From an uncultured Lachnospiraceae bacterium (GTDB lineage Bacteria > Bacillota > Clostridia > Lachnospirales > Lachnospiraceae), in NCBI GenBank assembly GCA_902780405.1, contig CACZFI010000002.1, forward strand, positions 47,810 to 111,809: 64,000 nucleotides of DNA, given 5' to 3'. The notes under the pieces were generated by a model. It worked only from the letters and a program-made list of their open reading frames with translations, was not told the origin of the DNA and ran no database searches. Below are positions 33,808 to 59,522 of this stretch, piece after piece; within the stretch, counting starts at the first letter, position 1; each line of letters starts with the position of its first letter. A program made the translations under genes and the position numbers.

Positions 33808-34014
33808 TTATGCCTGTGTAACACCGTACTTACGGTTGAACTTATCGATTCTACCTCTTGCCTGAGCAGCCTTCTGCTGGCCTGTGTAGAATGAATGGCA
33901 CTTGGAACAGATTTCCACGTGGATCTCTTCCTTGGTAGAACCTGTTACGAATTCGTTTCCGCAGTTACATACAACCTTTGCCTGATAGTACTCAGGATGG
34001 ATGCCTTCTCTCAT
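33808..34014 (-). CDS. rpmE: 50S ribosomal protein L31 (Zn-binding type)
   Basis: [23 protein letters not shown] and [11 protein letters not shown]. Confidence 0.97.
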
Positions 34015-34074
34015 GTCTTTCACCTCTTAATTATACTACTGTAAACGATCCCGACCGTTATAACAGCAAGTGAT

Positions 34075-34103
34075 AGTTTACCACAGAAAATCGCTATATG
34101 CAA
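34075..34103 (-). promoter_or_regulatory. rpmE promoter
   Basis: TTGCAT-17 nt-TAAACT with an extended TG. Confidence 0.65.
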
Positions 34104-34135: not shown

Positions 34136-34264
34136 CACCGGACACATACTTGTTTCAGGGGACGCTCCCGCTTCGATCTCACACGCAGCGGTACTAAGCT
34201 CAGCTGATGCTTCGCTAAGTGCCGGCGTGTTCGGCGACCCCGTTCAACAAGCATGTGTCCGGTG
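34136..34264 (+). repeat. Structured dispersed repeat, copy 1 (REP/MITE-like)
   Basis: Terminal inverted repeat CACCGGACACATACTTGTT...AACAAGCATGTGTCCGGTG; the interior is nearly identical to the reverse complement of 48195-48321. Confidence 0.85.
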
Positions 34265-34294
34265 TCGCTGTATTTCTGGATTCTGTAACACTTT

Positions 34295-34317
34295 CGTAAT
34301 GGGGTCAGGCACCTTTT
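34295..34317. repeat. 23-bp direct repeat, copy A (CGTAATGGGGTCAGGCACCTTTT)
   Basis: Identical to 34629-34651. Confidence 0.95.
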
Positions 34318-34581
34318 TGTTCCTTCATTTTTCTATATAGTTCTGCTAATTCCAACAATTCAATTCCCAGTCCATCTTCATGATTCCATGAATCAACTAT
34401 CACCCTAGGATATAACAAAGGCAGACATTTGCGTATCATTGTTTTTTCTAACTCTTTTAAGATGCTAATCAATTGTGTTTTGTTTTTTTTTGCTTCTACC
34501 AAGTTCAACAGCTTCTATTTCTAATTTTAGCTTTTGTTGAATCTCCATGTTTTTTTTCTTGAAGTCGGCTTCTAATGACAT
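34305..34581 (-). pseudogene. AT-rich ~91-aa ORF split by a +1 frameshift at an A9 tract
   Basis: GGAGG RBS and ATG at 34581. As read, it stops at 34465 after 38 aa. Deleting one A of the A9 tract (34483-34491) joins it to the 34305-34508 frame, whose TGA lies inside repeat A. Confidence 0.65.
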
Positions 34582-34628
34582 TTAATCAAATCCTCCAAAT
34601 CATTTATGTACCACTGCCTTGCACCACC

Positions 34629-34651
34629 CGTAATGGGGTCAGGCACCTTTT
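34629..34651. repeat. 23-bp direct repeat, copy B
   Basis: Identical to 34295-34317. Confidence 0.95.
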
Positions 34652-34705
34652 CTCGGCACTTTTTCTCGCTAAATTATACTAACAGCACATTTCTATTTTC
34701 TGTTT

Positions 34706-34975
34706 CTAGTTAGGAATTCTCATAATAAACGCTTTTAAAGCTTTTTCCCCTTTTTCACTTAATAATAACTCTAATGCTGTCTTTCCATCAAATTTCCGAA
34801 GCGGAGTATTAAACCAGTCGCCCCCATTATTCCCTATTATCGAATAAACCGCATTTATCACATCCTGAGGAACACCCTTGATTATAATATCGACTTTATC
34901 GAAACAATTAGCAAAATCTATCCAATCATCATCATTGTATTCATCATAGAAAAAATCAATCATATTCAATGTCAA
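34706..34975 (-). CDS. Small AT-rich protein with an Xre/MbcA/ParS-like C-terminal motif (start uncertain)
   Basis: DWFNTPLRKFDGKTALELLLSEKGEKALKAFIMRI resembles the WLxxPxxxLGGxxPLxLL...G...RI toxin-binding consensus. Confidence 0.55.
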   Translation of the reverse strand: MTLNMIDFFYDEYNDDDWIDFANCFDKVDIIIKGVPQDVINAVYSIIGNNGGDWFNTPLRKFDGKTALELLLSEKGEKALKAFIMRIPN

Positions 34976-34976
34976 T

Positions 34977-35105
34977 TCACCCCCACTTGGTTATATTATC
35001 AATCAACTCCTGTTTATTCATATTTTCAAATATGTATATTCCTTGCCAAAGCCTGTCAATTCCATCTTTCCAGTTTTCATATTCACTCTTGTTAGCCTGC
35101 TCCAT
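34977..35105 (-). CDS. Possible 42-aa ORF or gene remnant
   Basis: Hand translation: MEQANKSEYENWKDGIDRLWQGIYIFENMNKQELIDNITKWG*. Weak AAGGA RBS; fills the gap between the ATPase and the MbcA-like ORF. Confidence 0.35.
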   Translation of the reverse strand: MEQANKSEYENWKDGIDRLWQGIYIFENMNKQELIDNITKWG

Positions 35106-35123
35106 TCTGAATCTATTTCCTTC

Positions 35124-36173
35124 TCAAAACGCTTCCAGCTTACGCTTGACAAACTCCGAAAACCTCGGCAGTTTAACGGATAATACGCCCCATTGCGAGT
35201 CATCAATGACACCTTTATTGGCGAGGCGTTCCTTGTACTGAGAGAATTCGTTTTTCTTCTGTCCGGTCAGTTCTAAAAGCTCCGCTGTCTTCATAGATTC
35301 CTTCTGTGCGATAAAGCTCATGAAGAAGCGATCCTTCTCCGACATCTCAGCCCAGATTTTATTATAGACATAAGCCTCCAGTGCTTCGTCGAAGTGCATG
35401 AGCACATCCTCCGTAAGCTTGTGTTCTTCGCTGTCCCATACGTACTTACCAAGTGCCTGATACGCAAACGGATAACCCTTGGTTTGTCTTGCCAACTCTC
35501 CGGCCTCGTCTTCGCCGATACCTAGTGTGTCGCGATAGCTGTTTTTCATGGCAACAAAATTGAGTGGTGCCATGTGATACTTCGGCGCTCTGTAAAGGAA
35601 TGTCAGATTCTTCTCATCTTCAAGATTGTGGATGTTCTCATACAATCCCGCCATAACCAGATAAATTGGCAGTTCCTGTCGCACCATAATCTGAAAGCTT
35701 CCCGCAAATTGTTTCATGGATGCAGTATTACACACCTCATCAACAGTAACCAGCAAGCGCTTATTCTTCTTTTTCATTTCCGTAAGAATCTTCTCTAATG
35801 CTGCTTCGATGTCTGCGGTCGGCGGTACATTTTTCACAGAAACACCGATTCCGAAAGCCGAGAGATTGATTCCCTTTTCGAAAAACTTTTTGAAATCGCC
35901 GTCATGATCATAAATCTTGGCAACCAGACTGTTCAACATATCCCTTTCCGTGTTGAGTCCGATTACAATCCAGTCTTTCTGCTCGCGAATGCGACTCTCG
36001 ATTGCTGTCATCGTGACTGTTTTTCCGGATCCGCGCACACCGCACAGCATAAAGCACTGATTCTGCACAATGTCGGATTCCAACTCATCCACTATCTCAT
36101 CCACGACCAGCCCTCGTTCAATATACTGATGTGGTTTTCTTCCGAAAGATAAAACATACGGATTCTTATCCAT
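35124..36173 (-). CDS. Accessory AAA+/P-loop ATPase with a probable C-terminal winged helix
   Basis: NPYVLSFG, CGVRGSGKT, VTVDEV, TKGYPFAYQ and C-terminal FSQYKERLANKGVI. Confidence 0.85.
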   Translation of the reverse strand: MDKNPYVLSFGRKPHQYIERGLVVDEIVDELESDIVQNQCFMLCGVRGSGKTVTMTAIESRIREQKDWIVIGLNTERDMLNSLVAKIYDHDGDFKKFFEKGINLSAFGIGVSVKNVPPTADIEAALEKILTEMKKKNKRLLVTVDEVCNTASMKQFAGSFQIMVRQELPIYLVMAGLYENIHNLEDEKNLTFLYRAPKYHMAPLNFVAMKNSYRDTLGIGEDEAGELARQTKGYPFAYQALGKYVWDSEEHKLTEDVLMHFDEALEAYVYNKIWAEMSEKDRFFMSFIAQKESMKTAELLELTGQKKNEFSQYKERLANKGVIDDSQWGVLSVKLPRFSEFVKRKLEAF

Positions 36174-36199
36174 AATACTCGCCTCATTTCTGTTCTGCT

Positions 36200-36284
36200 T
36201 ATATACTTTTCATACTCTTATATACTTCTATATACTTTATATACTCTTATATACTTTTGAATTCATTATATACTCTTATATACT
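36200..36284. repeat. Array of seven TATATACT octamers at ~9-10 bp spacing
   Basis: Copies start at 36200, 36219, 36229, 36238, 36248, 36267 and 36277, with a partial CATACT at 36211. Confidence 0.9.
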
Positions 36285-36307
36285 TTTTTGTCAATCGAAC
36301 AGAATCT

Positions 36308-36348
36308 AAAAAACACTGCATCATTCCGCACGGAAACGATGCAGTGTC
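36308..36348 (-). terminator. rho terminator
   Basis: ACACTGCATC...GATGCAGTGT stem followed by TTTTT on the minus strand. Confidence 0.8.
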
Positions 36349-36353
36349 AAAGA

Positions 36354-37913
36354 TTACTTGCGCATTAAAGCCTTCTTTACGTGGTACACGAATTCTTTGT
36401 TATCTTTGGTGCGGGAGAAGAGTTTTAGGATCTCGTCGGTGTACTCTTCGGCCTTGGCGCCGGAGATGGCCTTGTGGATCAGATTCACAGCTTCCTGCTC
36501 TTCTTCGGTGAGAAGGAGGTCTTCGCGTCTGGTTCCGGAGCGCGTGATGTCGATGGCCGGGAAGATACGCTTCTCGGACAGCTTTCTGTCAAGAACGAGT
36601 TCCATGTTACCGGTACCCTTGAATTCCTCGAAGACAACGTCATCCATACGGCTTCCGGTCTCAACAAGTGCGGTTGCAAGGATGGTGAGACTTCCTCCCT
36701 CGCGCATGTTACGGGCCGCACCGAAGAACCGCTTCGGCATATGCAGTGCCGCCGGATCAAGTCCGCCGGAAAGTGTACGTCCGCTGGGCGGAACGGTCAG
36801 GTTGTAGGCTCTGGCGAGTCTGGTGATGGAATCAAGCAGGATGACCACATCCTGTCCGTGCTCCACGAGACGCTTGGCGCGCTCGATCACCATCTCGGAT
36901 ACACGCTTATGATGCTCGGGAAGCTCATCAAAGGTCGAGTAGATCACCTCTACATTATCTCCCTCGATGGACTCACGGATATCCGTAACCTCCTCGGGTC
37001 GCTCGTCGATCAAAAGAACGATCAAATGCATGTCTTTATTGTTGCGGCTGATGCACTTCGCGATCGCCTTAAGGAGTGTCGTCTTACCGGCTTTCGGCGG
37101 CGAAACGATCATACCTCTCTGTCCCTTACCGATAGGAGAAAGAATGTCTACGATACGAACCGCCACGGAAGCACCGGGCACATCCATATGAATCCTGTCA
37201 TCCGGGAAGATGGGCGTTAAATCCTCGAAAGGTGTACGCTTTGCAGCCACAGAGGGCTTGTATCCGTTCACATGTCTGATATAAAGGAGCGCAGAGAACT
37301 TCTCGCTCTGTGTCTTGATGCGGATGGGTCCGCCGATAATATCGCCCTTCTTTAAGGCAAATTTCTTGATCTGTACGGGTGATACATAGACATCGCGATC
37401 GCCGGGCAGGTAATTGGCGCTTCGTATGAATCCGTAACCCTCGTTCATAACCTCGAGGATACCGTCAGCCTCTTCGCCACTGTCTAAGTTGGCATTATAC
37501 TCCTGACCGTCATAGATTTTGATATCCGTATCCCCGTCCGGTGTCTCGGGCTCTAAGTTTCTCTGCTCCTGATAGTTCCTGTCCTCGGTCTGTACATGAC
37601 GCAGGATGGTCTTCTCCGTACGCTGCTCAGGACGTCGCTCCGCACGGTCGCTCTCGGAAACAGCCGCACGTTTTTTATCGGCGGGGCGCTGCTCTGCCGG
37701 CTTTTCGGTAGCAGGTCTTCCGGTCGTACGCCTTTTTTCTGCAGGCTTTTCGGACACAGTTTCCTCCTGCGCCTGGTTTCTCTTGGCAAACATCATCTCA
37801 ACATTGGTGAGAAGTTCTACAAGTTCGCCTTTTTTAAGGGTGGTGATACCACGAATCCCCTTCTCCTTTGCGAGTTCACGCAACTCGGCAAGGGACATCT
37901 TGTTGTAGTCCAT
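36354..37913 (-). CDS. rho: Transcription termination factor Rho
   Basis: [30 protein letters not shown] and [10 protein letters not shown]; N-terminal charged insert. Start reassigned to MDYNKMS behind AAAGGAG. Confidence 0.97.
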
Positions 37914-38021
37914 ATGATCTCCTTTATGTAATTCCAAAAAAAGTTTGTATGGGTAACGTAAGAACTCTGATTTAGATAAGATGAGTCTAACACAAATAAA
38001 AGAAAAGGTCTACTAAAATAT

Positions 38022-38609
38022 TTACTCCGGAAGCAATTCTTCGATCAGGTTCCAGATCTCGTCACGGCCCTGTTTTGTCTGGGACGAAAACGGAATGATG
38101 ACTGTATCTTCACCTGCCCCGAGTGTCTTTCTAATCTCGCTCACACACTTAAGAAGCTGGCTTCTCTTGATCTTGTCCAGCTTGGTTGCAATGATGATGG
38201 GCTCCCAGCCGTTCGCCACGATCCAGTCATACATTTGCTTGTCATTCTCACCGGGTTTGTGGCGGATATCGATCAGCAAAAAAACGCGTCTCAACTCCTT
38301 GGAGCGGGACAGATAACGCTCGATCATCTTCCCCCACTTCGCGCGCTGTTCCTTACTCACCTGCGCGTAGCCGTATCCGGGAAGGTCAACAAAATAAAAC
38401 TTCTCATTGATCTTGTAGAAGTTGATGGTCTGGGTCTTACCCGGCGCGGAGGACGTTCTTGCGAGTGCCTTGCGATTCAATAAACCGTTGATTAAAGAAG
38501 ATTTGCCGACATTGGATTTGCCGGCAAATGCTATCTCTGGTAATGGATTTTCAGGCAGCGTGCTTGTAACGCCACATACAGTTTCAAGCTCTGCTGATTT
38601 GATCTTCAT
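38022..38609 (-). CDS. engB: Ribosome biogenesis GTPase YihA/YsxC
   Basis: GKSNVGKSSLIN, PGKTQT, DLPGYG and TKLD. Confidence 0.96.
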   Translation of the reverse strand: MKIKSAELETVCGVTSTLPENPLPEIAFAGKSNVGKSSLINGLLNRKALARTSSAPGKTQTINFYKINEKFYFVDLPGYGYAQVSKEQRAKWGKMIERYLSRSKELRRVFLLIDIRHKPGENDKQMYDWIVANGWEPIIIATKLDKIKRSQLLKCVSEIRKTLGAGEDTVIIPFSSQTKQGRDEIWNLIEELLPE

Positions 38610-38614
38610 CTTTC

Positions 38615-39913
38615 TTATGCGATGCCGCTGGCATCTCTCTTTCTGACATGTCTGTGGAATGTCAGTTTCTTGTTTCTGGGTTCCTCAAGGTAGGTGATCT
38701 CAGGCTCTGCGCCCTCTTCCACAACCGCCTTGGTAATAACTACCTTGTCGATCAGCTCGTTCGTGGGAACTTCGTACATCTGATCCATAACAATGCGCTC
38801 CATAATGGCGCGGAGTCCTCTGGCACCGGTCTTTCTGGTCATGGCCTCCTTCGCAATGGCGCGAAGCGCATCCTCTTCAAACTCAAGCGTAACGCCATCA
38901 AGTTCAAAGAGCTTCTTGTACTGCTTACAGATGGCAGACTTCGGCTCGGACAGAATCCGCATCAAAGCCTCCTCATCGAGCAGATCAAGTGTAACCGTAA
39001 CCGGAACACGTCCGATAAACTCGGGGATCAATCCGTACTTGATAAAGTCCTCGGGAAGTACCTTTCGAAGGGTATCTCCAAGCTTCGCATCGGTTCTGTC
39101 GGAACCGAGTTCTGCAGCGAAACCGATGGACTTCTTGCCGATACGGTTGTCGATGATCTTCTCAAGACCTTCAAATGCACCACCGCAGATAAAGAGGATA
39201 TTCGTTGTATCAATCTGAATAAACTCCTGCTGAGGATGCTTTCTTCCGCCCTGGGGCGGCACGGAGGCAACCGTACCCTCCATAATCTTTAAGAGTGCCT
39301 GCTGAACGCCTTCACCCGAAACATCTCTGGTGATGCTGACGTTCTCGGACTTCTTTGTGATCTTATCGATCTCGTCAATATAGACGATACCATGCTCAGC
39401 CCTGTCAATGTCATAATCCGCTGCCTGGATGAGCTTTAAGAGGATGTTCTCCACATCCTCACCCACATAACCGGCCTCGGTCAGTGTGGTTGCGTCCGCG
39501 ATGGCAAAGGGAACATTCAGAAGCTTTGCAAGTGTCTGTGCAAGGTAAGTCTTACCTGAACCCGTAGAACCAAGCATCAGGATGTTGCTCTTCTGGAGCT
39601 CAACATCAAAATCCTTGTCAGACAGAATTCTCTTGTAGTGATTATAAACTGCTACGGAGAGAATCTTCTTGGCCTGCTCCTGTCCGATCACATACTCATC
39701 AAGGAATTCCTTGATCTCCTTCGGACGAAGCAGATTGATGTCGGTGTCGATATCGTCCGCAAACTCATCCTGGATGATCTCGGAACAAATGTCGATACAC
39801 TCGTCACAAATATATACATTCGGGCCCGCAATCAGCTTGCGAACCTGCTCCTGTGTCTTATTACAGAAGGAGCAGCGGATCTTCTTTCTTTCTTCGGTAC
39901 TACGTCCTGCCAT
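38615..39913 (-). CDS. clpX: ATP-dependent Clp protease ATPase ClpX
   Basis: Zn-binding CSFC...[27 protein letters not shown] and RKTGARGL. Confidence 0.98.
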
Positions 39914-39931
39914 GATTACCTCTAATCCGAT

Positions 39932-41218
39932 TTATACTTCCTTTGCGTTTGCAGAAAGGAAATCAAGTGCCTTGCGGGATGCAAGCTCCTTCTTCAAGGA
40001 TGCAAGTTCCTTCTCGCCCATGATCTCTTTTAACTTCTCGGGCTCCATCTGATAGCTCTCGCCGAGAACCTTAAGCTCCTCATCCACATCAGCATCGGAA
40101 ACCTCGATCTTTTCTGTCTCTACTACCTTCTCAAGCACAAGGCTGGTCTTGATTCTTGCGATCGCATCCGGCTTTACACGCTCAAGCATATCTTCCTTGG
40201 AAGTCTTCATCAGACGGAGATAATCCTCCATGCGAAGTCCCTGGTACATCATATTCTGAGCGAACTCATCGTAGATACGCTCCTGATAGTACTCTACCAT
40301 CGGCTCGGGAATATCAACTTCTGCTGAATCAGCAAGCTTCTCTACTACCTTCGCCTCGATCTGACGCTTTACTTCTCTTTCCTTCTTCACCTCAAGGATC
40401 TTCTTCACATCCTCCTTGTAAGCATCGAAGGTGTCAAACTCAGATACATCCTCAGCAAACTCATCGTTTAACTCGGGAAGCTCTGTCTCTGTGATTGCCT
40501 TTAAATTTACCTTAAATACAGCGGGCTTGCCTGCAAGATCCGTTGCATGATAATCCTCGGGGAATGTAACGTTCACGTCGAAGGAATCACCGATGTTCTT
40601 GCCTACGATCTGATCCTCGAAGGTATCGATGAAGGAATGAGAACCAAGTGTAAGCTTGTAGTCCTCAGCCTTACCGCCCTCGAACTGCTCGCCGTCCACA
40701 TAGCCGTCAAAGTCGATCACAACTTCGTCGTCAAGCTTGGCTGCGCGATCGGTTACCTCAACCTTGCGTCCGTTCTCCTTCTGGGTCTTTAAGATCTCAG
40801 CCATAACCTCATCATCGGTAACAGCCTTGTCAATCTTCTCAATCTCGATGCCCTTGTACTCACCGATCTTGATCTCCGGCTTTAAGGCAACGGTTGCTGT
40901 ATAAATGAAGGGCTTGCCCTTCTCGATCTGTACAACATCAATCTCAGGTCTTGAAACGATCTCCTCCTCACAGGCATCCACCTCTTCGGGGTAGGTCTGA
41001 CCGATCAGCTCATTTGCTGCATCCTCGTAGAATACAGCAGGGCCGTACATCTTCTCGATAAACTGCTGGGGCACCTTGCCCTTGCGGAATCCGGGTACGG
41101 AAAAACGTCCCTTGTTTTTATTGTAAGCTGCCGTTACAGCCTTTGAAAAATCCTCTGCGGGAACCTCGATGGTAAGCTTCGCCATACTGCCGTCAAGCTT
41201 CTCAAGTGTTGCACTCAT
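39932..41218 (-). CDS. tig: Trigger factor
   Basis: PGFRKGKVP and FKBP-like domain IDFDG...FEGG. Confidence 0.96.
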   Translation of the reverse strand: MSATLEKLDGSMAKLTIEVPAEDFSKAVTAAYNKNKGRFSVPGFRKGKVPQQFIEKMYGPAVFYEDAANELIGQTYPEEVDACEEEIVSRPEIDVVQIEKGKPFIYTATVALKPEIKIGEYKGIEIEKIDKAVTDDEVMAEILKTQKENGRKVEVTDRAAKLDDEVVIDFDGYVDGEQFEGGKAEDYKLTLGSHSFIDTFEDQIVGKNIGDSFDVNVTFPEDYHATDLAGKPAVFKVNLKAITETELPELNDEFAEDVSEFDTFDAYKEDVKKILEVKKEREVKRQIEAKVVEKLADSAEVDIPEPMVEYYQERIYDEFAQNMMYQGLRMEDYLRLMKTSKEDMLERVKPDAIARIKTSLVLEKVVETEKIEVSDADVDEELKVLGESYQMEPEKLKEIMGEKELASLKKELASRKALDFLSANAKEV

Positions 41219-41283
41219 GTCTTAATATATCCTCCTATTTCTATGGTTTCTGAAAATCAACTCATGAATTATATCATAAGTCC

Positions 41284-44200
41284 CTATTTTCGTCCATACT
41301 TTTTCATTTTGCGTGAAAGTACCACTGCTCCTGCGCCCGAAACGCTCATCATGAAGACGATCAGCATGATCGGTGCCATATCTCCGGTCTTCGGTGAATC
41401 TGCGGATCCCATGTATCCGTAAAGTACAGGCTCATTGGTTGCCGTCTTTGAAGGTGTTACCGTTGCATCCTTGGACTTATTGCCGGAATCTGAGGACCCG
41501 CCGTTGCCTCCGTTGCCGGGATCGGGGTTTGTCTTGCCCTTCTCGTGTGAGGTAAAGAGTGCCGCAATCACGGTGTCACCGGTAATCTTGTCGTACGCCT
41601 TGTCCCATCTTTCGAATGTGTAGGTGTACTTATCCGTAGCCTTCTTGGTCGGCGTCTTGGTGGGCGGCGTAGCTGCCTTGCCCTCCTGTACGGTTTCCGT
41701 CTTCATCACGGCACCGTCACCATCAACCCACTTCACCGTGTAGTTCTTCGGATTCGGCTTCTCTACTTTGTAAAGCGCATATACCGAGAACATATTGGTG
41801 CGGATGGAAATCTCATCGTGTGTCAGTGTCACAGACTCATAATCATCACCGCTGATGAAGGTGTATCCGTCCTCACTGTTGCCGTGCAGGGATGCCACAT
41901 AGATGGTCTGACCTGCCAGGTCGCCGAGCGGGAATGTCACCGTGATCGGCTCATAGAGATGATCGAGGAAGCAGGGTGTTTCATTTACATGAACGCCGTT
42001 CCTGTCGATAACTTCCTTCACGATGGTAAGCTCAATGTATCTTACGATCTGAGCATCTTTGCCGACACCGTCATCCAGAGCCTTCTTGGCAACACCGCTC
42101 ACATCCACATACTTTGCATGAAGCGTGATCTTGATGGAACCTCCGTTGGCTACAACCTGCTCATCGTCGGGTGTGACATTGCCCTTGTAAAGCGCGGTGT
42201 TGTAAATCTTCTCGAGTCCGTCTACCGTAAGTTCCACGTCTCCGTCATCAAGCTCAACCGCAGTGCTCTTGCCCTGATTCAGAATGAGATGCACGCCGTT
42301 CTTGGTGCCGTAATCGGTCGGATAAGTGATTCCCTCGTTTGCAACGGTCACCGACTGCTCGGAATTAAGGCTTCCGTCTGTTGCAACGATTCTGTAGGAT
42401 CCGGCAGGAATGTCATCGAAGAAGAATGCCGTATTGTCCGCATCCGTGATCTTCGCTCCCGCTACAGCCGTGTTGCCTTTGTAAAGGCTTACATAGATCG
42501 GGAAGTTCTTAAATGCATCATCCGTGCCGGTTGCATAATCCGCAGTGCCTCGGATGGTAGTACCCTTATCGTAATTCAATGTCTTGAAGGATCCGGATAC
42601 CACGATCTCTTCATTGGACGTCTTGGTCTTGGCATGTACGCGATAATCGTAAGTGGTATCCGCCTTAAGTCCCGTCCAGTTGTTGGTCAGGTGCAGACCG
42701 CTTCCGGTAGCTTCCTTGTTCACAAGTGCCGAACGATATGCGGATTCGGACCTCTTCTTGAACTCGATGTAGCATCCGCTCTCATCGATGTCGTCGGATC
42801 CCTTCACAACATCTGCCTCGATGTGTGCGCCGCTTGTGGTGATGGCACTTACAGGTGATACTGTCATGGAAAGCGGTGTGAATACCACTTCATCCGACTT
42901 GTTGCCTGCAATATCGTATGCGTAGATGGTGTAGGTGTTGTTACCTGCTGCGGTAAAGCTTCCTGTGATCAGTCCGTCGTTTTCATCAACGTGAATCGGT
43001 GTGTCATTGACATAAACCTTGGTTGCATCCGGTCCGCTCACCTGGTCTGTTACTCGGAAGTTCACGGTGACATTGCCATCCGCTACTACCGAGCTTGTGA
43101 TCTCTACCTTCGGGAGCTCGGTGTCCACCTTCAAGGTCTTAGTCGCCTTTAAGCTCTCAACGCCGGACTGGCTCACTGCATAAGCCTCAATGCTTACCTC
43201 GCCCTGCTTGTCCACTGTGAAGGACTTTGTGGCCGTGGTAAATGTATCGGAGTCGGAATTGGCTCCCTTGTTGTAGATCACCTTGTAGTGTGTGGTGACA
43301 GCCGTATTGTCCGCGGTCATGGTTGTGGAATTTACGGTTGCCTTCGGTGCCTCGGTAATATACCAGCTGTCATTACCGAGCTTACCCTCGCCCTGAAGTT
43401 CCACGTCGATGGTCGGTGTCTCGGGCGGTGTATTGGAAATCTTGTTGAATGTCTTTACCTTGGTGGCTTGATTGCCGGCCTTATCGGTAGCAACGATGGT
43501 GTAGCTGCCGTTCTTGGTAATGGTGTAGGTATACGCACTCTCCGCCGTCCAGGACTTTAAGAGGTGGGTATCATCAATTGTCAATCCATCGTACAGCTTT
43601 ACGCTATCCACGCCGGACTCGTTGGCAGGCTCGGTTACCGTAAAATTCAAGTTGATCTGCTGCTTGAACTCCGTGGAATCCACATCTTCTCCCGCGTCAA
43701 TGGTCGGCTCGTTCGGGTCATACATAAATGAACCGACGGAATCCGTAGTGTAGGAGTTGCCTGCGTTGTCATATACGACACCCTGCGCACTGTAGGCACC
43801 GGCCTCGGTATAACCGAGTGTCTTGGAGAAGGTATAACCTGTTACCTTTCCGTAATCCTTCTTGGCTGAAGCGCCTGCTTCGGTTACTGTCTCGGTTGTG
43901 GTGTCTGTTGCACCGGAGGGAAGTGTGATCTTCCACTCAAACTTGTTAAGACCGCTGGCATCATCCGTAGCCGCAGCCGCAAATGTAAGGTCATTGTACC
44001 AGATGGGGCTGTCCGGCGTGGAAGCGCTTGCCGGCGCTCCGTCTGAAGATGCACTGATCGTCGTACCGACGATAGTGTTTTCCACGATCCACTCATAGTA
44101 AGGATCGCCGGGTTTTACAGATTCGTTGGCATTGCCGGTGTTGAGTTTTAATTTACTTGCTTCGGAAGGGATTCCGAGTTCATTCTTCGCATATACGATC

Positions 44201-47200
44201 AGCTGGCCCCTGTCACCGGATCCGATGGAGAAGTTGAATGTATAACAGTCTCCTGCCTTCGTCGGATTCTTGATCACAGATTCCTTGTTGCCCACCTTGC
44301 TGCCGGACTCATCAAGGAAGTAGTAATAAAGTTCCGTACACTGGCTTCCGCTGGTCTCATAGGTCACACTGAAGTTTAAGCCGGACATATTATTATAATA
44401 TGCACCGAAGGTAAGTCCGGGTGCGAAGAAATTCGGCTTACCGGGATTCACTTCGTATGCTACCAGTCTCGGCATATCGGGATCGATATTGATGTTGGTA
44501 AGTGTTACCTTGGTCGCAACCGCATGATCTGCGGAATTGTAAAGCAGGAAGTCAATGGTTGCATTCGTCAGTTCTTCATTGATAAAGATCTGACCGGAAA
44601 GACCTGTCTCTGCTGCCGAATGGGTTGTACCCTGTGCAATGTCGGATCCTGTTCCGTTCATGGAAAGAAGTCGGATCTTGTCGTACTTGGTCGTATCCTT
44701 CGGTGTGATGGTAAGACTTCCATAGTAACCGTTCACGGGAGTCTCTGCGATCTCGTAGAAATTCTCGCCGGGGTCACGGGAAACATTCACTGTCTGAGAA
44801 TTCACAACCGTTACGGCATAGTTACCGTCCGTTGCAAATGTCGGTGTTACGGTGTAGCTGGATTCCGCAGGTGCGTACAGATTGCTCTGCAGATGATTCC
44901 ATGAAGACTGCGGATTCATACCCAGGTAATTGGTAAGGAATGCATCCGGATCCGCATCATACAGATCTCTTTCGGATGCCGCAAGTTTGGTCTTGTCCTG
45001 AACACGAACAATATAGTCCGGGTTGTCCTGTCCGAAGAGGATGTCGTTCGAAGCGCCTGTCGGAAGCTCCGTGGTCACCTTGACGGGTGCCTGGTCTACG
45101 GTGGCGATTCCGTCCGTCACGATGGTACCACCGCTTACGCCTGTAAGTTCATAGTAATCGGAGATGTCATTGTCCGATCCGTCCAATGCATGAAGCACGG
45201 CGCCGGTCAGTGTCAGGCTCTTGCCCGTACCCGCATCTTTGCCGCGTTCGCTTCCGTTATCATTCAAAGTTGCCTGTGAATCGTAGGTCACATAAACCTT
45301 GTCATTATTCACCGTAGCCGCGCCGGTAACTTTAGCGGTCGCATTAACGGAGATTGTATTCAGTCCGTCGTAAGTCTTTGAAGGTGCATCCGTTCCGCCG
45401 TTGCCGCTGAATACGGTCGTGCTGTCTAAGGCCACCTGTCTCTTGTTGATGGTGATTGTGATCGTAAGCGGTGTGCCCGTACCACCCTCGATCTCGTTCG
45501 GGTCTCTTGCGACCGCGTCGAGTGTCAGAACGTCCGTCTTGTTGGGTGTACCGGAAACGGTATATGCGTTGGTTGCACCGGTTACTCCGAGCCCATAGGT
45601 ACCTAAGGTAGATACGTCTCCGGCATCGAGTTCGATCGTTACATCCTCGCTGGCTGTACCGCCGTTCTTGTAACGTGCGGAAATCGTATGTGTGGATCCG
45701 GTCTCGCCGTAGGTATAGTCGAGGCTTGCGGTTCCGACCTGCGGCTCCCCGTCTACCAAAAACTCTAGCTGTCTGTACTCCCATACACCGACTAAGGTGA
45801 CACCGCCGACATTCTGATCCACGGTAGGATCAGCGCCGTTCACCGTAAGGCCGTTCACCGTGTTCACAGTGGCGTTCGCGATCAGGTCCGTACCTGTGGA
45901 AATTCTCCAGCCTGCCAGATAGTATGCAGGGTTCTTGCAGTAAGATGCCACCGATTCCGCTGTGGGAAGTGTTGCGGTCGAACCGTAATTATAAGTAGCA
46001 TCGGAAAGGAATTCCTGGCTGCCCGATGCGGAAAGATCGTCAATTTCGTCTGCATCGAAGAGCTGGAATCGAAGATCCACAGACTTCGGCGACCATTTGG
46101 ATGTAAACTCAACCACGTTGTTCTCGGAAGTTACGGCAAATGTCTCGCCGATGGCATGAAAGGCGTTGCCGTTGATACCTGTGAAGTTCCATCCGAAACG
46201 ATAGTAATTATATGTAGCAGCGTTGCCTACGGTGTAGTTCACGCTGGGTTTTGTCTTTCCGAAGTTCTCGGAAGACTCGGGAACGGGAAGTTCGATCACA
46301 ACCGGATTGTCATAAGCTTCCGTTGCGTTGTTTCCGTCGTCCTCAAGTCCATCGGAAATGTTAAGTGTATATTTGGTTCTTGAAACAGAGAAATAATAGT
46401 TTAACTCATAGATCTTGCTGTTGGTGGTACCACAGGAAACCGTCGTTGCCGAAGAGTTCTGTGCCGTACTGAATGCCTGATCCGTATAAAGGTAGTTCGT
46501 TCCGTCCGCCTTGTCTACCTTAAAGTAGTCCGCACTGTAGCCTGCATCCGCAAGGAGCTGAGCTGCGGGACGGAATGTAAGGGTTGCGATACGGGGCTTG
46601 TTGGTCTCTCCGTTATCTTCATAGCTTACGACAGCCGTATCATCCGTAAAGACGGTTCTCTTGCCGGCATCCGCCGTAACTAAGATGTAGTTGATCTTTA
46701 CGTCGTCGAGACCGTCCGTTCTGCCTGCGACATTCTTGGTCTCCGCAGACAAGCCAAAAGCAGAGGCAAGTGCATCCTCTGTAGTGGTATCGGAATCGGT
46801 TGTATTTGTATCGTTGGAGGTGTCGGCAGCGGGATCGTCTGCCACATCGATGACATTGTCGTCAAGTCCGTCGGAAAGATCTATGTTATCGGTATCGCTA
46901 TTTGAGGTGTTGGTATCGTCGGTTGTTAAGGCAGTGTCAGTTGCAGGATCTGCGGGATCGGTTACTTCGGACTCATCTTCCGCTGCCGCTTCGGTTGTCT
47001 CTTCCGTAGCGGTATCGAGTCCTTCCATGGATGCAGAGGACGTCAAAAACAGAGACTGTGTGATAAGAAGCGTCATCACAAGTACAGAAACTACAAGCTT
47101 CCGTCCGTTCCCCTTTCCCCAGTAGATCATATGCGAGATTGCGGTGATCACCGCAACCAAAGCAAGCGTCGGATAAACCAGGATCCGATGCTTCTTGCCG

Positions 47201-47241
47201 ACATCAAGCAGCCTTTTAACAATTCTGTCTTTCATACCCAT
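41284..47241 (-). CDS. ~1985-aa sortase-anchored multidomain surface protein
   Basis: N-terminal hydrophobic leader, acidic linker, InlB B-repeat-like units, YDG-like PSKTYDG, Ig/FN3-like segments (WTGLKADTTYDYRV), and C-terminal SPKTGD plus TM plus basic tail. Confidence 0.88.
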   Translation of the reverse strand: MGMKDRIVKRLLDVGKKHRILVYPTLALVAVITAISHMIYWGKGNGRKLVVSVLVMTLLITQSLFLTSSASMEGLDTATEETTEAAAEDESEVTDPADPATDTALTTDDTNTSNSDTDNIDLSDGLDDNVIDVADDPAADTSNDTNTTDSDTTTEDALASAFGLSAETKNVAGRTDGLDDVKINYILVTADAGKRTVFTDDTAVVSYEDNGETNKPRIATLTFRPAAQLLADAGYSADYFKVDKADGTNYLYTDQAFSTAQNSSATTVSCGTTNSKIYELNYYFSVSRTKYTLNISDGLEDDGNNATEAYDNPVVIELPVPESSENFGKTKPSVNYTVGNAATYNYYRFGWNFTGINGNAFHAIGETFAVTSENNVVEFTSKWSPKSVDLRFQLFDADEIDDLSASGSQEFLSDATYNYGSTATLPTAESVASYCKNPAYYLAGWRISTGTDLIANATVNTVNGLTVNGADPTVDQNVGGVTLVGVWEYRQLEFLVDGEPQVGTASLDYTYGETGSTHTISARYKNGGTASEDVTIELDAGDVSTLGTYGLGVTGATNAYTVSGTPNKTDVLTLDAVARDPNEIEGGTGTPLTITITINKRQVALDSTTVFSGNGGTDAPSKTYDGLNTISVNATAKVTGAATVNNDKVYVTYDSQATLNDNGSERGKDAGTGKSLTLTGAVLHALDGSDNDISDYYELTGVSGGTIVTDGIATVDQAPVKVTTELPTGASNDILFGQDNPDYIVRVQDKTKLAASERDLYDADPDAFLTNYLGMNPQSSWNHLQSNLYAPAESSYTVTPTFATDGNYAVTVVNSQTVNVSRDPGENFYEIAETPVNGYYGSLTITPKDTTKYDKIRLLSMNGTGSDIAQGTTHSAAETGLSGQIFINEELTNATIDFLLYNSADHAVATKVTLTNINIDPDMPRLVAYEVNPGKPNFFAPGLTFGAYYNNMSGLNFSVTYETSGSQCTELYYYFLDESGSKVGNKESVIKNPTKAGDCYTFNFSIGSGDRGQLIVYAKNELGIPSEASKLKLNTGNANESVKPGDPYYEWIVENTIVGTTISASSDGAPASASTPDSPIWYNDLTFAAAATDDASGLNKFEWKITLPSGATDTTTETVTEAGASAKKDYGKVTGYTFSKTLGYTEAGAYSAQGVVYDNAGNSYTTDSVGSFMYDPNEPTIDAGEDVDSTEFKQQINLNFTVTEPANESGVDSVKLYDGLTIDDTHLLKSWTAESAYTYTITKNGSYTIVATDKAGNQATKVKTFNKISNTPPETPTIDVELQGEGKLGNDSWYITEAPKATVNSTTMTADNTAVTTHYKVIYNKGANSDSDTFTTATKSFTVDKQGEVSIEAYAVSQSGVESLKATKTLKVDTELPKVEITSSVVADGNVTVNFRVTDQVSGPDATKVYVNDTPIHVDENDGLITGSFTAAGNNTYTIYAYDIAGNKSDEVVFTPLSMTVSPVSAITTSGAHIEADVVKGSDDIDESGCYIEFKKRSESAYRSALVNKEATGSGLHLTNNWTGLKADTTYDYRVHAKTKTSNEEIVVSGSFKTLNYDKGTTIRGTADYATGTDDAFKNFPIYVSLYKGNTAVAGAKITDADNTAFFFDDIPAGSYRIVATDGSLNSEQSVTVANEGITYPTDYGTKNGVHLILNQGKSTAVELDDGDVELTVDGLEKIYNTALYKGNVTPDDEQVVANGGSIKITLHAKYVDVSGVAKKALDDGVGKDAQIVRYIELTIVKEVIDRNGVHVNETPCFLDHLYEPITVTFPLGDLAGQTIYVASLHGNSEDGYTFISGDDYESVTLTHDEISIRTNMFSVYALYKVEKPNPKNYTVKWVDGDGAVMKTETVQEGKAATPPTKTPTKKATDKYTYTFERWDKAYDKITGDTVIAALFTSHEKGKTNPDPGNGGNGGSSDSGNKSKDATVTPSKTATNEPVLYGYMGSADSPKTGDMAPIMLIVFMMSVSGAGAVVLSRKMKKYGRK

Positions 47242-47442
47242 ACCTTTCACCTCAAAATGTACTGATACTCTGCCTTATAAGCACTAAAACGCGGGCATAA
47301 ATGCCCACACTGACTCAATAGTATAAGACATTTTACCATATTGCAACAAAAAATAAAATACTTTTTTATAAGATTTATACCAAATATAGTATCTTTTTTG
47401 ATTCAGGTTCGGATATTTTGTAGTTTTGCTTCCGGATTCGGA

Positions 47443-47922
47443 CTATGCGGGATAGTTCAATCTCTCGTCCGTGATCCCGGTTAAAACTTCATCGAGGAAC
47501 TTCCCGGCAAGAAACTTCGCCATCGGAAGGTTCATGTCCCGGAAATTGCCGCAGTCATGCGGGGTTGCGCCCGGTACTTCTCCCTCGAAATCAGCCATGA
47601 AACGATACATTTCCGTCATCAGCGGCACGATCTCCTCAGAAGTAAGGTCCCCGGCAAGGATCACGTAGAATCCCGTGCGGCAGCCCATCGGGCCGAAGTA
47701 GATGACGCGGTCCTTCCACTCTGCATGATTGCGGAGGAAGGTTGCACCCAGATGCTCCATGGTGTGGATCTCCGCGGTGTTCATGACCGGCTCGTAATTC
47801 GGACGGGTCATACGGATATCAAACGTCGTAAGGACGTGCCCCTCCACACTGTCTTTTCTTGAAACGTACACGCCTGGAAGAAGGCGTTCGTGATCTATTG
47901 TAAAACTTGCTATCTTTTCCAT
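47443..47922 (-). CDS. luxS: S-ribosylhomocysteine lyase (AI-2 synthase)
   Basis: MEKIASFTIDH, HTMEHLG, GPMGCRTGFY and CGN. Start reassigned to 47922. Confidence 0.96.
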   Translation of the reverse strand: MEKIASFTIDHERLLPGVYVSRKDSVEGHVLTTFDIRMTRPNYEPVMNTAEIHTMEHLGATFLRNHAEWKDRVIYFGPMGCRTGFYVILAGDLTSEEIVPLMTEMYRFMADFEGEVPGATPHDCGNFRDMNLPMAKFLAGKFLDEVLTGITDERLNYPA

Positions 47923-47957
47923 AATATATACTCCTGTGTGTATTGACGCGTCACTGT

Positions 47958-48175
47958 GCGCCTTGCATATGCCGACTGCCTTGCCGGACACGTTCGCACT
48001 AAGGTGGTAGGAATCCTGACGGATTCCCATGAAGTCGCTCAAAGCCGCGACGGGCTGTCTGCATCATAGATGCAGACCTGATTCCGCACGCAGCGGACGC
48101 TAAGCTCGAAAGAACCTCGCTAAGCGCCGGCGGCTCCACATTGTCCTTGCAATGCAGCCGCATACGCATCGGCGC
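47958..48175 (+). repeat. Structured dispersed repeat, copy 3 (expanded, with extra internal hairpins)
   Basis: Outer stem GCGCC...GGACA / TGTCC...GGCGC; core CGCAGCGGACGCTAAGCTC...CTCGCTAAGCGCCGGCG. Confidence 0.75.
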
Positions 48176-48194
48176 AGGACGACATTTCAGCGAT

Positions 48195-48321
48195 ACCTGT
48201 CATATGCTTGTTGAACGGGGTCGCCGAACACGCCGGCACTTAGCGAAGCTTCAGCTGAGCTTAGTACCGTTGCGTGTGAGATCGAAGCGAAAGCGTCCCC
48301 TGAGGCAAGCGTATGACAGGT
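48195..48321 (-). repeat. Structured dispersed repeat, copy 2
   Basis: Reverse complement of the copy 1 interior; own terminal stem ACCTGTCATATGCTTG/CAAGCGTATGACAGGT. Confidence 0.85.
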
Positions 48322-48382
48322 GAGCGCCAAGCGAATCATCTACATATCTTATCGGTAGCGGCCGCCCCTGATATTAGGCAGA

Positions 48383-49075
48383 TCACAGATTCTTCACAAT
48401 TTCGGTCACAAGCGCAACACTGTGCGCGATGGCTTTACGTTCGAAGGACGGATAGTCTTCCGTTGCGGAATCGTCCGCCTTGTCGGAGATTGCCCTAATC
48501 ACCAGAAAGGGAATGCCGTTAAGGTAAGCAGCCTGCGCGATCGAAGCGCCCTCCATCTCTGTACAATCGCCGTGAAAGGTGTCAAGAATACGCTGCTTGG
48601 TCGCTTTGTCCGAGATAAACTGATCACCGGAAACCACGCGACCCACAAAGGTCTTGATATCCGGATTGACACGTTCATTGCAGTCCTTTGCAAGGGAAAG
48701 CAGTTTTTCGTCTGCAGTGAAGGTAGACTGCTTCATTCGGGGGATCACGCCGGGCTTGTAACCGAAGCCCGTAGCATCCATATCATGCTGCAACGCATCC
48801 TTTGACAAAACGATATCTCCGATATCAATAGCCGCATTGAGGCTGCCTGCGATACCGGTATTGATCACAGCATCTACGCCGTAGGTATCTGCAAGGATCT
48901 GCGTACAGCAGGCTGCATTGACCTTACCGATGCCGCTTCGCACGATCACGACATCCTTACCGCAAAACTTGCCTCGGTTAAATTCCATGGATGCGATGGT
49001 CCTTACTTCGACATCCGTCATTTGCTCTTTTAATTTGGACACTTCTTCGTCCATGGCGCCGATAATTCCTACCAT
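48383..49075 (-). CDS. mtnN: MTA/SAH nucleosidase (Pfs)
   Basis: GIIGAMDEE, SGIGKVNAA, SGDQFI, EMEGAS and IRAISDKAD. Confidence 0.96.
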   Translation of the reverse strand: MVGIIGAMDEEVSKLKEQMTDVEVRTIASMEFNRGKFCGKDVVIVRSGIGKVNAACCTQILADTYGVDAVINTGIAGSLNAAIDIGDIVLSKDALQHDMDATGFGYKPGVIPRMKQSTFTADEKLLSLAKDCNERVNPDIKTFVGRVVSGDQFISDKATKQRILDTFHGDCTEMEGASIAQAAYLNGIPFLVIRAISDKADDSATEDYPSFERKAIAHSVALVTEIVKNL

Positions 49076-49098
49076 ATGTACCTCCTATATACACGCGC

Positions 49099-49237
49099 CA
49101 GTCGGCGAGCAGGTTGTGTTGCCTGGACACGCTTGCGCTAAATTCAGCTCGCAGCGGTACTAGGCTCGACAATACCTCGCCAAGTACCGGCGGCTTCATG
49201 TTGTCCTGGCAACGCAACCACTCGCCGCCCGACACTG
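49099..49237 (+). repeat. Structured dispersed repeat, copy 4 (fills the mtnN 5' region)
   Basis: Stem GGCGAG..GGTTGTGTTGCC.GGACA / TGTCC.GGCAACGCAACC.CTCGCC; core CGCAGCGGTACTAGGCTC...CTCGCCAAGTACCGGCG. Confidence 0.8.
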
Positions 49238-49254
49238 TATTATATGTCTTGTTA

Positions 49255-49283
49255 AAAACAAACCCCCGATAATTATCGGGGGT
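49255..49283 (-). terminator. Terminator of the butyrate operon
   Basis: ACCCCCGATAATTATCGGGGGT hairpin followed by a T-rich run on the minus strand. Confidence 0.8.
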
Positions 49284-49301
49284 CTGAATGATTTGTTTGA
49301 A

Positions 49302-59400: not shown

Positions 59401-59478
59401 TGCAGCTTTGGCCGCCTTCTCTTTCTCGACCTGTGCTCTTACCGCTGCAATGAGAGCTTCTCTTTGATCTATAGCCAT
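56473..59478 (-). CDS. 1001-aa Ala/Lys/Glu-rich helical protein with a C-terminal degenerate AAA-like domain
   Basis: EKKAEP repeats and a long TolA-like K/E/A helix. The C-terminal NIALLGEHGFG...FARSFY...VVENAG...VILTG segment resembles a SpoVK/CbbX-type AAA without Walker A Lys. Confidence 0.7.
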   Translation of the reverse strand: MAIDQREALIAAVRAQVEKEKAAKAAKAQKEQEALAASGVKTSSKSESDKPKYKTLSPEELAKIEEKKRKKHAAEMGIELTEENKESAASVPPTEEKKAEPEKKAEPEKKAEPEKKAEPEKKEEPKKTGLKLKISDEDKAAAEKAAAEKAAKEAAAKAAADKATKEAAAKKAAEAKKDDEAKAKLRPQKVEGAEGNVRVIDGEEAPVEETGFTKEGDTTIISEDAKWTQTEKSKPKEMNPDDIISIVPNRTTPTGDVKSMYDLDDDDDDALGAEISKLAGFDDSAERAAKEKKQEEERKAQEAKMADDPAAKRAAERMKKEEERLKKEEEKRKRFAEAEKRANEQERRIAEAAAKKKAADAAAKRAEEDAKKKAEEEAKRKAAAEEKRKAAEEAHKKAEAEARAKAKEVALKAADAAKKQIEEAAKQLEDAKKAVADIDKAVADEVKKASDEATEAAKKDIDSKVAAAVEKAAAEAQKTADAEIAAAEAEAKKTAEEARKKAEAGVGAKVAEAEKKAAEEAEKAVAAAEAGVMSAKQATEKEKAEARKEAEAGKAKIAAAEKDLETAKKVVTDAEAAVAEAEKAVVAAKKAVEEKNKEVESKTKAVDDAKRSAQVAEDHIAAVDKRADEEIKRAEEAVTRQKTAAEEAKKTAADKARQMAEADVEKQVADATKAAKEVAAKKADEALKKIETAKIKAADEERKKAEAEVSKIADEAAKKATAAADARKTEAKKAVEAAEKALEAAKKAGAEADKAVEDADKIKIDLTLPSDEGELPLAAYYLVKYTKIDRVAAPLTGAFSAIAANPAENKNIALLGEHGFGLVTCGEDFARSFYDMGICKSKTIGKIAAKTLNKLNDEKLGEAMKKLAGACMVVENAGSILPDKMANIMKLAGSNANDVSVILTGEKESVLRMIEGAALSGNFPHQVEINNLTPKEMVTIAKEYISQRGFGQDDTVESTLSNILKTMETGNIDRMIKAIDDAMVKCEARDSKKKLIGADFK
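59104..59193 (-). repeat. In-frame 18-bp tandem repeat (EKKAEP x4 plus EKKEEP)
   Basis: Read directly from the DNA and protein. Confidence 0.9.
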
Positions 59479-59522
59479 CGGCTATATCCTCCTTTCGGTA
59501 ACGTAACCCCTATCAAATATGA

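Follow-up and report, generated by a model that had tools for sequence, protein, structure and literature searches.

Short palindromic repeats are known from bacteria as ERIC or IRU elements, as REPINs of REPIN/RAYT systems, as miniature inverted-repeat transposable elements (MITEs) and, as derivatives of IS200/IS605-type insertion sequences (IS) that lack open reading frames, as palindrome-associated transposable elements (PATEs). In this study, a family of long foldback repeats was characterised, starting from four copies in a 64,000-nt stretch of DNA (the window; contig CACZFI010000002.1, positions 47,810 to 111,809 of the forward strand) from an uncultured Lachnospiraceae bacterium (assembly GCA_902780405.1). 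In its behaviour the family resembles ERIC, REPIN and MITE elements, but it lacks the features by which each of these is defined. On balance, we favour the view that the copies are non-autonomous mobile foldback DNA repeats specific to the Lachnospiraceae.

The ERIC/IRU elements of the Enterobacteriaceae, imperfect palindromes of approximately 127 bp, share with this family their size, intergenic position, co-transcription, both orientations and many copies, as well as the lack of coding capacity, a centre that is the best conserved part, and compensated stem changes. They belong to an unrelated host lineage and have no sequence similarity to it, a separation made by description and not by a model, and the Lachnospiraceae family differs in its three-way junction with a strict GNRA loop and in lineage- or locus-specific arms of up to approximately 90 bp. 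REPINs (PMC3116915, PMC3337134) are likewise non-autonomous hairpin repeats, dispersed intergenically, vertically inherited and long-lived in a lineage, with presumed mobilisation in trans as folded single strands and frequent inverted doublets. In REPINs, however, the arms are conserved REP units of 20-40 nt around a variable spacer, whereas here the apex is conserved and the arms are variable; in addition, the 5' tetranucleotide is GGMC instead of the GTAG type. REPIN systems have a single-copy RAYT (Y1 transposase) gene, which REPs typically flank; no transposase-like protein was enriched within ±4 kb of 116 loci.

MITEs such as the Correia/NEMIS, RUP, BOX, bcr1 and EFAR elements resemble the family in being short, non-coding, multi-copy and strain-variable, and in forming stable stem-loops when transcribed. 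Their family-wide terminal inverted repeats, which match a parent IS, were not found here, nor was an unambiguous direct target-site duplication, and the conservation gradient was reversed. The termini differed between subfamilies beyond GCC...GGC, plasmid, phage and IMG/VR data had no related sequence, and no IS partner was found. The ends of IS200/IS605 elements and the PATEs which insert 3' of a fixed tetra- or pentanucleotide, are similar in their dependence on hairpins, in the apparent lack of a target-site duplication and in having a target-like tetranucleotide on one flank. They have separate left-end and right-end hairpins, in contrast to the one large hairpin seen here, and the present family had no replication-strand bias (54:60) and no TnpA/TnpB gene nearby.

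The Clostridiales-1 motif (RF01699), to which an earlier reading of the window from its letters (the original prediction) had related the repeats, also occurs in gut Clostridia and is not tied to particular genes. The Rfam scan proposed in that prediction returned nothing at the gathering score of Rfam 15 for the 64-kb window, and permissive scans (E ≤ 10) of short stretches, comprising the four copies and two typical members of the family (L095 and L060), gave chance-level matches to unrelated families. Clostridiales-1 is thus excluded, and the proposed relationship was abandoned.

Two other hairpin systems were considered and ruled out. Integron attC sites have R''/R' boxes (GTTRRRY) at the hairpin foot, an apex that varies, and one orientation throughout, after the cassettes; here the foot is GGMC/GCC...GGC/TR (slashes outside the dots mark the junctions), the apex is conserved and the orientation is random. 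The ssoA single-strand origins of rolling-circle plasmids carry RSB (TTATGCCGAGAAAATTT) and CS-6 (TAGCGT) together on one strand of their long hairpin (PMC4598088). Here, the RSB-like stretch is only the freely covarying stem P2 described below, TAGCGA is found on the opposite strand only, and there were no plasmid matches.

Distribution of the family

A core pattern, CGCARCGGN{3,4}TARGCTCN{8,16}TCGCYAAGNNCCGG, had exactly four matches in the 64 kb and none in 100 shuffles. A covariance model (R1), made from relatives outside the window, recovered the same four sites only, with 85.3, 76.6, 74.4 and 50.6 bits; the next match in the 64 kb had 12.7 bits (E = 0.4). The four structured repeats of the original prediction were therefore recovered where it had placed them, and its description of the element as repeated, structured and non-coding, and as akin to REP and MITE sequences, was upheld.

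An exact-pattern scan, which covered one genome per species, identified at least 116 loci, or at least 125 instances when the window is included. The carriers were at least approximately 67 species-level assemblies, almost all of them Lachnospiraceae; among the matches listed, they included Butyrivibrio, Roseburia, Acetatifactor, Eisenbergiella, Otoolea, Clostridium symbiosum-like bacteria and others, with up to nine loci per metagenome-assembled genome (MAG). The model R1 recovered the copies found by the pattern and further diverged ones (115 + 18 matches). The bacterium from which the window derives lives in the rumen or gut. The locations were exclusively intergenic. Nothing similar was present in plasmid collections, phage collections or IMG/VR, which rules out a phage- or plasmid-borne element, and literature searches returned nothing relevant on a Lachnospiraceae repeat or RNA of such a kind. 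The family is real, widespread and, as far as could be checked, undescribed. The Lachnospiraceae are among the most abundant gut bacteria of humans and animals, and the family is present in many of their genera, at tens of copies per genome, without being covered by the RNA and repeat libraries searched.

Homologous flanks were found in two locus pairs only among the 116 loci, so nearly all copies are at non-orthologous sites. Presence or absence between strains was also observed: a check proposed in the original prediction showed that copies 2 and 3 of the window are not in a related sheep-gut strain. The sheep-gut contig (9450 nt, depth 23.9) was approximately 89% identical on both sides of the gap, and 22 nt replaced the two copies. 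A GCGCC direct repeat brackets the insertion, and a single GCGCC is present in the empty allele; as this is one case with an allele just approximately 89% identical, the assignment of the repeat is tentative. Both presence/absence polymorphism and non-orthologous positions, by which a mobile repeat is recognised, were thus seen in this family. The metagenome depth over the elements was 25-50 times that of the flanks and contigs broke within the elements; such repeats break metagenome assemblies at their sites.

The conserved core

The A strand is defined here as the orientation of the consensus given in the original prediction (CGCAGCGG...CCGGCG), and the B strand as its complement; A is the plus strand of the window in copies 1, 2 and 4, and B is the plus strand in copy 3. 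The hairpins were typically 125-140 nt long and up to approximately 260 nt, with a unit of approximately 137 nt; 59 of the 111 measurable copies were 120-150 nt, and the median of all was 144. An asymmetric apex of approximately 90 nt was conserved across genera, and the arms were lineage- or locus-specific.

According to the model, the B-strand consensus is predicted to be a three-way junction, composed of an outer stem (P1), a long arm (P2-P3) and a mini-hairpin (P5). P2, the base of the long arm, is typically GAAAAACG paired with CGUUUUUC, is freely covarying and is followed by a CU bulge. P3 continues the arm as CGG-NN(N)-CU[U.U]RGC, with a U.U mismatch, and the top of the arm has two tandem G.A pairs (GA/GA) and then a variable tip. 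P5, on the 3' side, is a 2-bp mini-hairpin of the form GC-GNRA-GC. On the A strand, the core has three GCTC tetranucleotides.

The P5 loop was GNRA in all 116 recognisable mini-hairpins (GAGA 42, GAAA 26, GCAA 17, GGGA 15, GGAA 10, GCGA 5 and GTGA 1). All four bases occurred at its second position, including 23 pyrimidines, and a pyrimidine was never found at the third. The closing pairs of P5 covaried (GC/GC 105, GU/AC 7, AC/GU 3, AU/AU 1). Over the 28 modelled pairs, 91% of the cells were paired and 20 pairs had double changes; none of 500 shuffles reached the observed value, and slid controls were 30-43% paired. The covarying stems that had been predicted were therefore confirmed. As the asymmetric, B-strand-specific features are kept across a whole bacterial family, the core is under purifying selection in a single-stranded form, and such selection is evident for the asymmetric apical core only. 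The earlier claim of selection on structure rather than sequence was too strong for the arms, given the rare G.U pairs, transversion doubles, two-arm block swap and locus-specific extensions described in the next section.

These features provide the best case for the main rival of the mobile-repeat interpretation, namely a structured non-coding RNA or RNA module that acts through the B-strand fold (for example by binding a protein, by cleaving itself as a ribozyme, or as an element of RNA processing or stability), with the repeats as its gene copies. The strongest argument for such an RNA is the strict GNRA loop with its covarying closing stem. The asymmetric bulges and mismatches kept across genera, the strong covariation of the stems and the better folding of the B strand in all four copies of the window point in the same direction. 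The evidence from the arms, from orientation and from transcription, presented below, makes a functional B-strand RNA unlikely overall.

Pairing of the arms

In a strand-neutral comparison of the outer arms, 3644 Watson-Crick pairs were counted, against 59 (A strand) and 97 (B strand) G.T pairs and 230 other mismatches. G.U pairs accounted for approximately 2% of the modelled cells. Among 13 close copies from two mouse-gut genomes, double changes were seen at 20 of 56 pairs, and one-sided changes in 4 cells only. The double changes were of the transversion type in 30 cells and of the transition type in 33, with G.U intermediates in only 4, and the changes in these copies clustered in a 5-bp hypervariable box beside the terminal GCC/GGC.

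Larger changes also affected both arms together. At the orthologous loci L058 and L093, whose flanks were 95-97% identical, a non-homologous block of 15 nt occupied matching positions in the two arms, and substitutions specific to one species, located further outwards, were mirrored on the opposite arm. Six copies in one MAG had no more than the unit of approximately 137 nt in common, which was followed by locus-specific palindromic extensions of 7-36 bp that were 98-100% perfect. In other lineages, the arms reached approximately 90 perfectly paired bp. A second foldback family, unrelated to the first, was noted in the same MAG as two copies in opposite orientations (L018 3095-3212, L026 6945-7102); its conserved centre of 24 nt, GACAGCMTTAGGAACGTGAGCCGA, is enclosed by GCAAATTTG inner arms, and its arms measure 47-67 nt.

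Copies 1 and 3 of the window are inverted repeats of one another over 135 nt, with 89% complementarity. Three pair changes between them are fully compensated (G-C to T-A, A-T to T-A and C-G to T-A), two of these being of the transversion type, and two further changes are one-sided. Similar interiors with outer stems that differ in sequence and remain paired, as had been predicted, are thus real, but the copies concerned are 1 and 3 and not 1 and 2; the stem sequences quoted in the prediction were correct.

Template switching during replication is an established mechanism by which quasipalindromes are corrected and extended (PMC7202029). The rarity of G.U pairs, the transversion doubles, the block swapped on two arms and the perfect extensions all fit template switching, and suggest that the pairing of the arms is mainly a matter of DNA. 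The sequence comparison argues that arm complementarity is kept largely by DNA-level copying from arm to arm, and not by compensatory evolution of the RNA type. In the proposed mechanism, the hairpin would form during replication and one arm would be copied from the other by template switching, which would correct mismatches, replace blocks on both arms and extend the palindrome into the flanking DNA; the arms would need only to pair. By analogy with what has been argued for REPINs (PMC3116915), selection for hairpin formation during mobilisation may add to template switching.

For a functional RNA, the rare G.U pairs, the transversion doubles that were as common as transition doubles, and arms of up to approximately 90 perfect bp, beyond what such an RNA needs, are all unfavourable. 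The family would be a natural example of compensated stem changes that result from DNA-level copying, and it is a caveat against taking covariation as proof of RNA function, since repeats of this kind are liable to be mistaken for structured RNAs in covariation screens.

Orientation, signals and neighbouring genes

The flanking genes were both on the A strand in 35 cases, both on the B strand in 25, divergent in 20 and convergent in 12, as judged from crude open reading frame (ORF) calls and with copies in related genomes that are not independent. For the A strand, 54 loci had a positive and 60 a negative GC skew (p = 0.64), and the coding strand was split 58:56; the local absolute skew was 0.14 and tracked the coding strand (r = 0.75). 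The absence of a skew bias argues against a classical strand-biased insertion of the IS200/IS605 type.

A promoter was looked for in 109 copies, and a site resembling one was found in 5-9 of them, at no fixed position. A run of at least six T in the 10 nt after the hairpin was present in 13 of the 109 copies on the A strand and in 3 on the B strand. Neither a promoter nor a T-run therefore travels with the element, and both an independent small-RNA gene and an intrinsic terminator were rejected, the former for want of a promoter and terminator that travel along and the latter on the T-run counts. The random orientation is also the strongest argument against a functional B-strand RNA: with no promoter or terminator of their own, roughly one copy in two would mainly yield RNA of the wrong sense.

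The idea of a cis-regulatory leader or riboswitch for mtnN, luxS and rpmE came from copies 1, 2 and 4 of the window, each of which is found in the B sense at a distance of 35-120 nt upstream from its gene (rpmE, luxS and mtnN, respectively). Across at least 125 copies, however, there was no preferred orientation or position relative to genes, the neighbouring genes were unrelated to each other, the mtnN-luxS spacer of the related strain had no elements, and no expression platform or terminator was present. Since the orientation of the copies relative to their neighbours is random, a 5' leader or riboswitch was rejected as highly improbable.

When 2697 ORFs from the 116 loci were clustered all against all, no conserved neighbour protein was found within ±4 kb; the ORF clusters near the copies consisted of generic families and of spurious ORFs that read through the element.

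Junctions, close pairs and mobilisation

The junctions of the short copies had the form GGMC/GCC...GGC/TR, which was complete in 34 of 59 copies, across unrelated arm subfamilies. The left flank was conserved as G in 39, G in 32, M in 43 and C in 47 of the 59. The strand-neutral arm alignment revealed no general direct repeat flanking the hairpins. From these alignments, the junction context looks like a preferred target or cleavage context, and it would suggest that insertion is site-preferential. In the mobile-repeat interpretation, the conserved fold of the single-stranded centre would most probably be a recognition module for a mobilising enzyme which acts in trans and is encoded elsewhere in the genome. 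The three-way junction with its strict GNRA loop offers a testable route to the protein or reaction by which it is recognised.

A more specific proposal is that an HUH (Y1) enzyme, either of the IS200/IS605-TnpA or of the RAYT kind, mobilises the element in single-stranded form, as a PATE- or REPIN-like passenger. The enzyme would recognise the folded B- or A-strand hairpin, cleave behind GGMC at the left end and behind GGC at the right end, and insert the strand 3' of GGMC. The conserved tetranucleotide on one flank only, the right end GGC, the lack of an evident target-site duplication, the requirement for a hairpin with strand-specific structural motifs, and the three GCTC in the A-strand core are all consistent with this. 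The GCTC tetranucleotides recall the binding of repeats by HUH proteins, and are taken as a lead only. IS200/IS605 insertions are strongly strand-biased, and the 54:60 distribution over replication strand or GC skew does not agree with this; nor was a gene resembling a Y1 transposase enriched within ±4 kb of the 116 loci, the part of the genomes that was scanned. Furthermore, the conserved part is the apex and not the foot of the hairpin, and the flank motif is missing from the copies in the window. The HUH proposal was considered doubtful.

Among the close pairs (less than 1.5 kb apart), 13 of 15 had their TR-sides facing (<-B B->), including copies 2 and 3 of the window. This bias has a binomial p of approximately 1e-6 against an expectation of 25%, when relatedness is ignored. 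The partners of a pair were not recent duplicates of one another. We also entertain, as a speculative and not very probable alternative, a new, 'centre-out' class of mobile element, in which a small conserved and structured core, active as single-stranded RNA or DNA (for instance through recognition by an enzyme or joint action with one), would be what moves. Every insertion would then build a long stem of its own from an inverted duplicate of the neighbouring host DNA, fresh copies would settle preferentially next to the TR-side of copies already in place, and the strict GNRA three-way junction would be a catalytic or guide-like module and not a passive hairpin.

Presence in RNA

Contigs that were 99-100% identical to positions 47965-48334 of the window (copies 2 and 3) were found in four rumen metatranscriptomes, in which the depth over luxS and mtnN was 0. 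In mouse-gut RNA, the cores had 10-25 times the depth of well-expressed flanking genes, and the spacer between two copies had a depth of 7, compared with 235-400 in the flanking genes. The RNA contigs and the depth over the cores indicate that the elements are present in RNA, where they are probably stable. The RNA data are contigs without direction. The ratio of core to flank in RNA (10-25) does not exceed the copy ratio in DNA (25-50), and the elements are probably transcribed passively along with their surroundings. The rumen data, which cover just copies 2 and 3 and leave the flanking genes uncovered, would favour a functional B-strand RNA, but the depth ratio and the lack of strand information in the contigs count against it.

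The low depth of the spacer could also be read as the effect of a host-domesticated element that acts in either orientation and that would insulate or terminate transcription, hold back 3' exonucleases, or bind a nucleoid or RNA-binding protein. Elements of the ERIC type are reported to affect mRNA stability. The exclusively intergenic location, hairpins on both strands and a core conserved over the whole bacterial family would also fit this explanation. It was judged improbable, as no T-run follows the hairpin, and a role independent of orientation leaves the GNRA and G.A motifs of the B strand unexplained. In addition, the positions are not conserved between species and the copies vary between strains, which counts against an indispensable role for the host at specific loci.

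A number of results weigh against the preferred explanation, that of a mobile foldback DNA repeat. A GNRA loop of such strictness, in which only purines occur at the third position, is a hallmark of RNA, and agrees better with an RNA-level role of the B strand than with a role in DNA alone. MITEs normally have conserved ends, and a deeply conserved centre is out of the ordinary for them. The strand test was mixed, as the arms slightly favoured the B strand (97 vs 59), yet 13 G.U on the A strand occurred at one P3 position. The orientation test carries the limits of its ORF calls and of related genomes, given above. The strong <-B B-> bias of the close pairs does not follow from a foldback repeat. 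Neither an autonomous relative nor an excision product nor an unambiguous target-site duplication came to light, and the 8-kb loci (±4 kb) contained no recognised mobilising enzyme. Finally, there is one clean comparison of a filled and an empty site only, and deletion of a palindrome between the GCGCC repeats would give the same picture.

The copies in the window and their genomic context

The coordinates of the four copies and of the associated features are given in Table 1. The ends of the palindromes were set by strand-neutral arm alignment and pseudo-hairpin folding, as minimum-free-energy folds with long flanks gave spurious outer pairs.

Table 1. Positions of the repeat copies and of the features associated with them in the window
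Feature	Position	Strand	Basis
Core-pattern matches	34184-34225, 48089-48130, 48233-48274, 49150-49190	+, +, -, +	Pattern search
Copy 1, whole hairpin	34136-34264	B on minus	Pattern; model 34147-34257 (-), 76.6 bits
Copy 1, mini-hairpin P5	34164-34171	minus	GC-GGGA-GC, GNRA loop; sequence reading and model alignment
Copy 2, expanded variant, approximately 219 nt	47958-48176	B on minus	Pattern; model on core alone, 50.6 bits
Copy 2, conserved apical core	48089-48132	minus	Model positions 31-73
Copy 3, inverted relative to the other copies	48195-48321	B on plus	Model 48201-48311 (+), 74.4 bits; folds
Copy 3, mini-hairpin	48287-48294	plus	GC-GAAA-GC
Copy 4	49103-49227	B on minus	Pattern; model 49114-49222 (-), 85.3 bits
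Copy 4, mini-hairpin	49131-49138	minus	GC-GCAA-GC
Segment with copies 2 and 3 missing from related strain	47964-48349		Sheep-gut contig joint 47963->48350, skips 386
GCGCC, left junction repeat, 5 nt	47958-47962	+	Sequence reading vs empty allele
GCGCC, right junction repeat	48325-48329	+	Same comparison as for left repeat

All four copies formed a long hairpin on both strands (z -3.8 to -8.4 vs dinucleotide shuffles), and the B strand had the more stable fold in each of them. Copy 1 had a minimum free energy of -74.2 kcal/mol (z -8.4) when folded as the minus strand and of -68.9 kcal/mol (z -7.3) as the plus strand; the corresponding energies were -117.6 and -100.9 kcal/mol for copy 2, and -76.5 and -66.0 kcal/mol for copy 4. 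In copy 2, the apical 44 nt alone fit the family model, and two extra hairpins are inserted at approximately 48010-48027 and 48048-48068.

The genes around the copies are all on the minus strand, in the order etfA, etfA terminator, copy 4, mtnN, copy 3, copy 2, luxS. Copy 4 has the etfA terminator (49259-49286) on one side and the start of mtnN (49075) on the other. Copy 1 is approximately 120 nt upstream of rpmE (33808-34023, minus strand), which has a Pfam match to L31. The repeats thus create strain-level variation beside housekeeping genes, in this case mtnN-luxS and rpmE. At the site of copy 1, a related contig diverges after position 34089. A look-up of exact matches to the mtnN protein gave only the same contig as that of the window, broken at the repeat.

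In a comparison of 80 metagenomic loci with mtnN homologues, a human-gut species had a diverged member of the family upstream of mtnN in some strains and a different foldback element in others. The spacer upstream of mtnN is a hotspot for hairpin elements. The different hairpin of this species, whose mtnN is 80% identical to that of the window, is approximately 210 nt long (L125, approximately 2230-2440; also L126, L132, L136 and others). A further element of approximately 80 nt is nested in its apex in L164, and the apex is deleted in L119.

A solo TTATCGGTAGCGGCC/GCC at 48349-48366 adjoins copy 3 and is similar to the conserved flanks of the Otoolea/1XD21-72 subfamily, which are ..ATCGTGAGRGGGCC/GCC on the 5' side and GGC/TACGTNATCGGCRGGCC on the 3' side. 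A search for TTATCG..AG.GGCC as an independent repeat found too few sites for interpretation.

Other features of the window

A short high-copy motif, TGTAAC...GTAAT / ATTAC...GTAAC, is present at 34264-34317 and 34628-34647. Its metagenome depth reached 568, against approximately 5 in the flanks, and many alternative joints were seen between both places. Small minus-strand ORFs lie upstream of copy 1 at 34305-34975, and one of them (34706-34975) has a weak match, just under the Pfam cut-off, to an Xre/MbcA/ParS antitoxin C-terminal domain.

At 36198-36296, a cluster of TTATATAC(T) repeats with spacings of 10 and 19 nt is located just upstream of a minus-strand gene (35124-36173) and has an iteron- or operator-like look. 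The region 57195-60486 is highly repetitive, with nine 36-nt units at 59941-60336 and 21-nt periodic repeats at 57195-58260. A 300-nt direct repeat (5733-6032 and 6506-6805, 79% identical, 773 nt apart) probably represents two paralogous gene segments.

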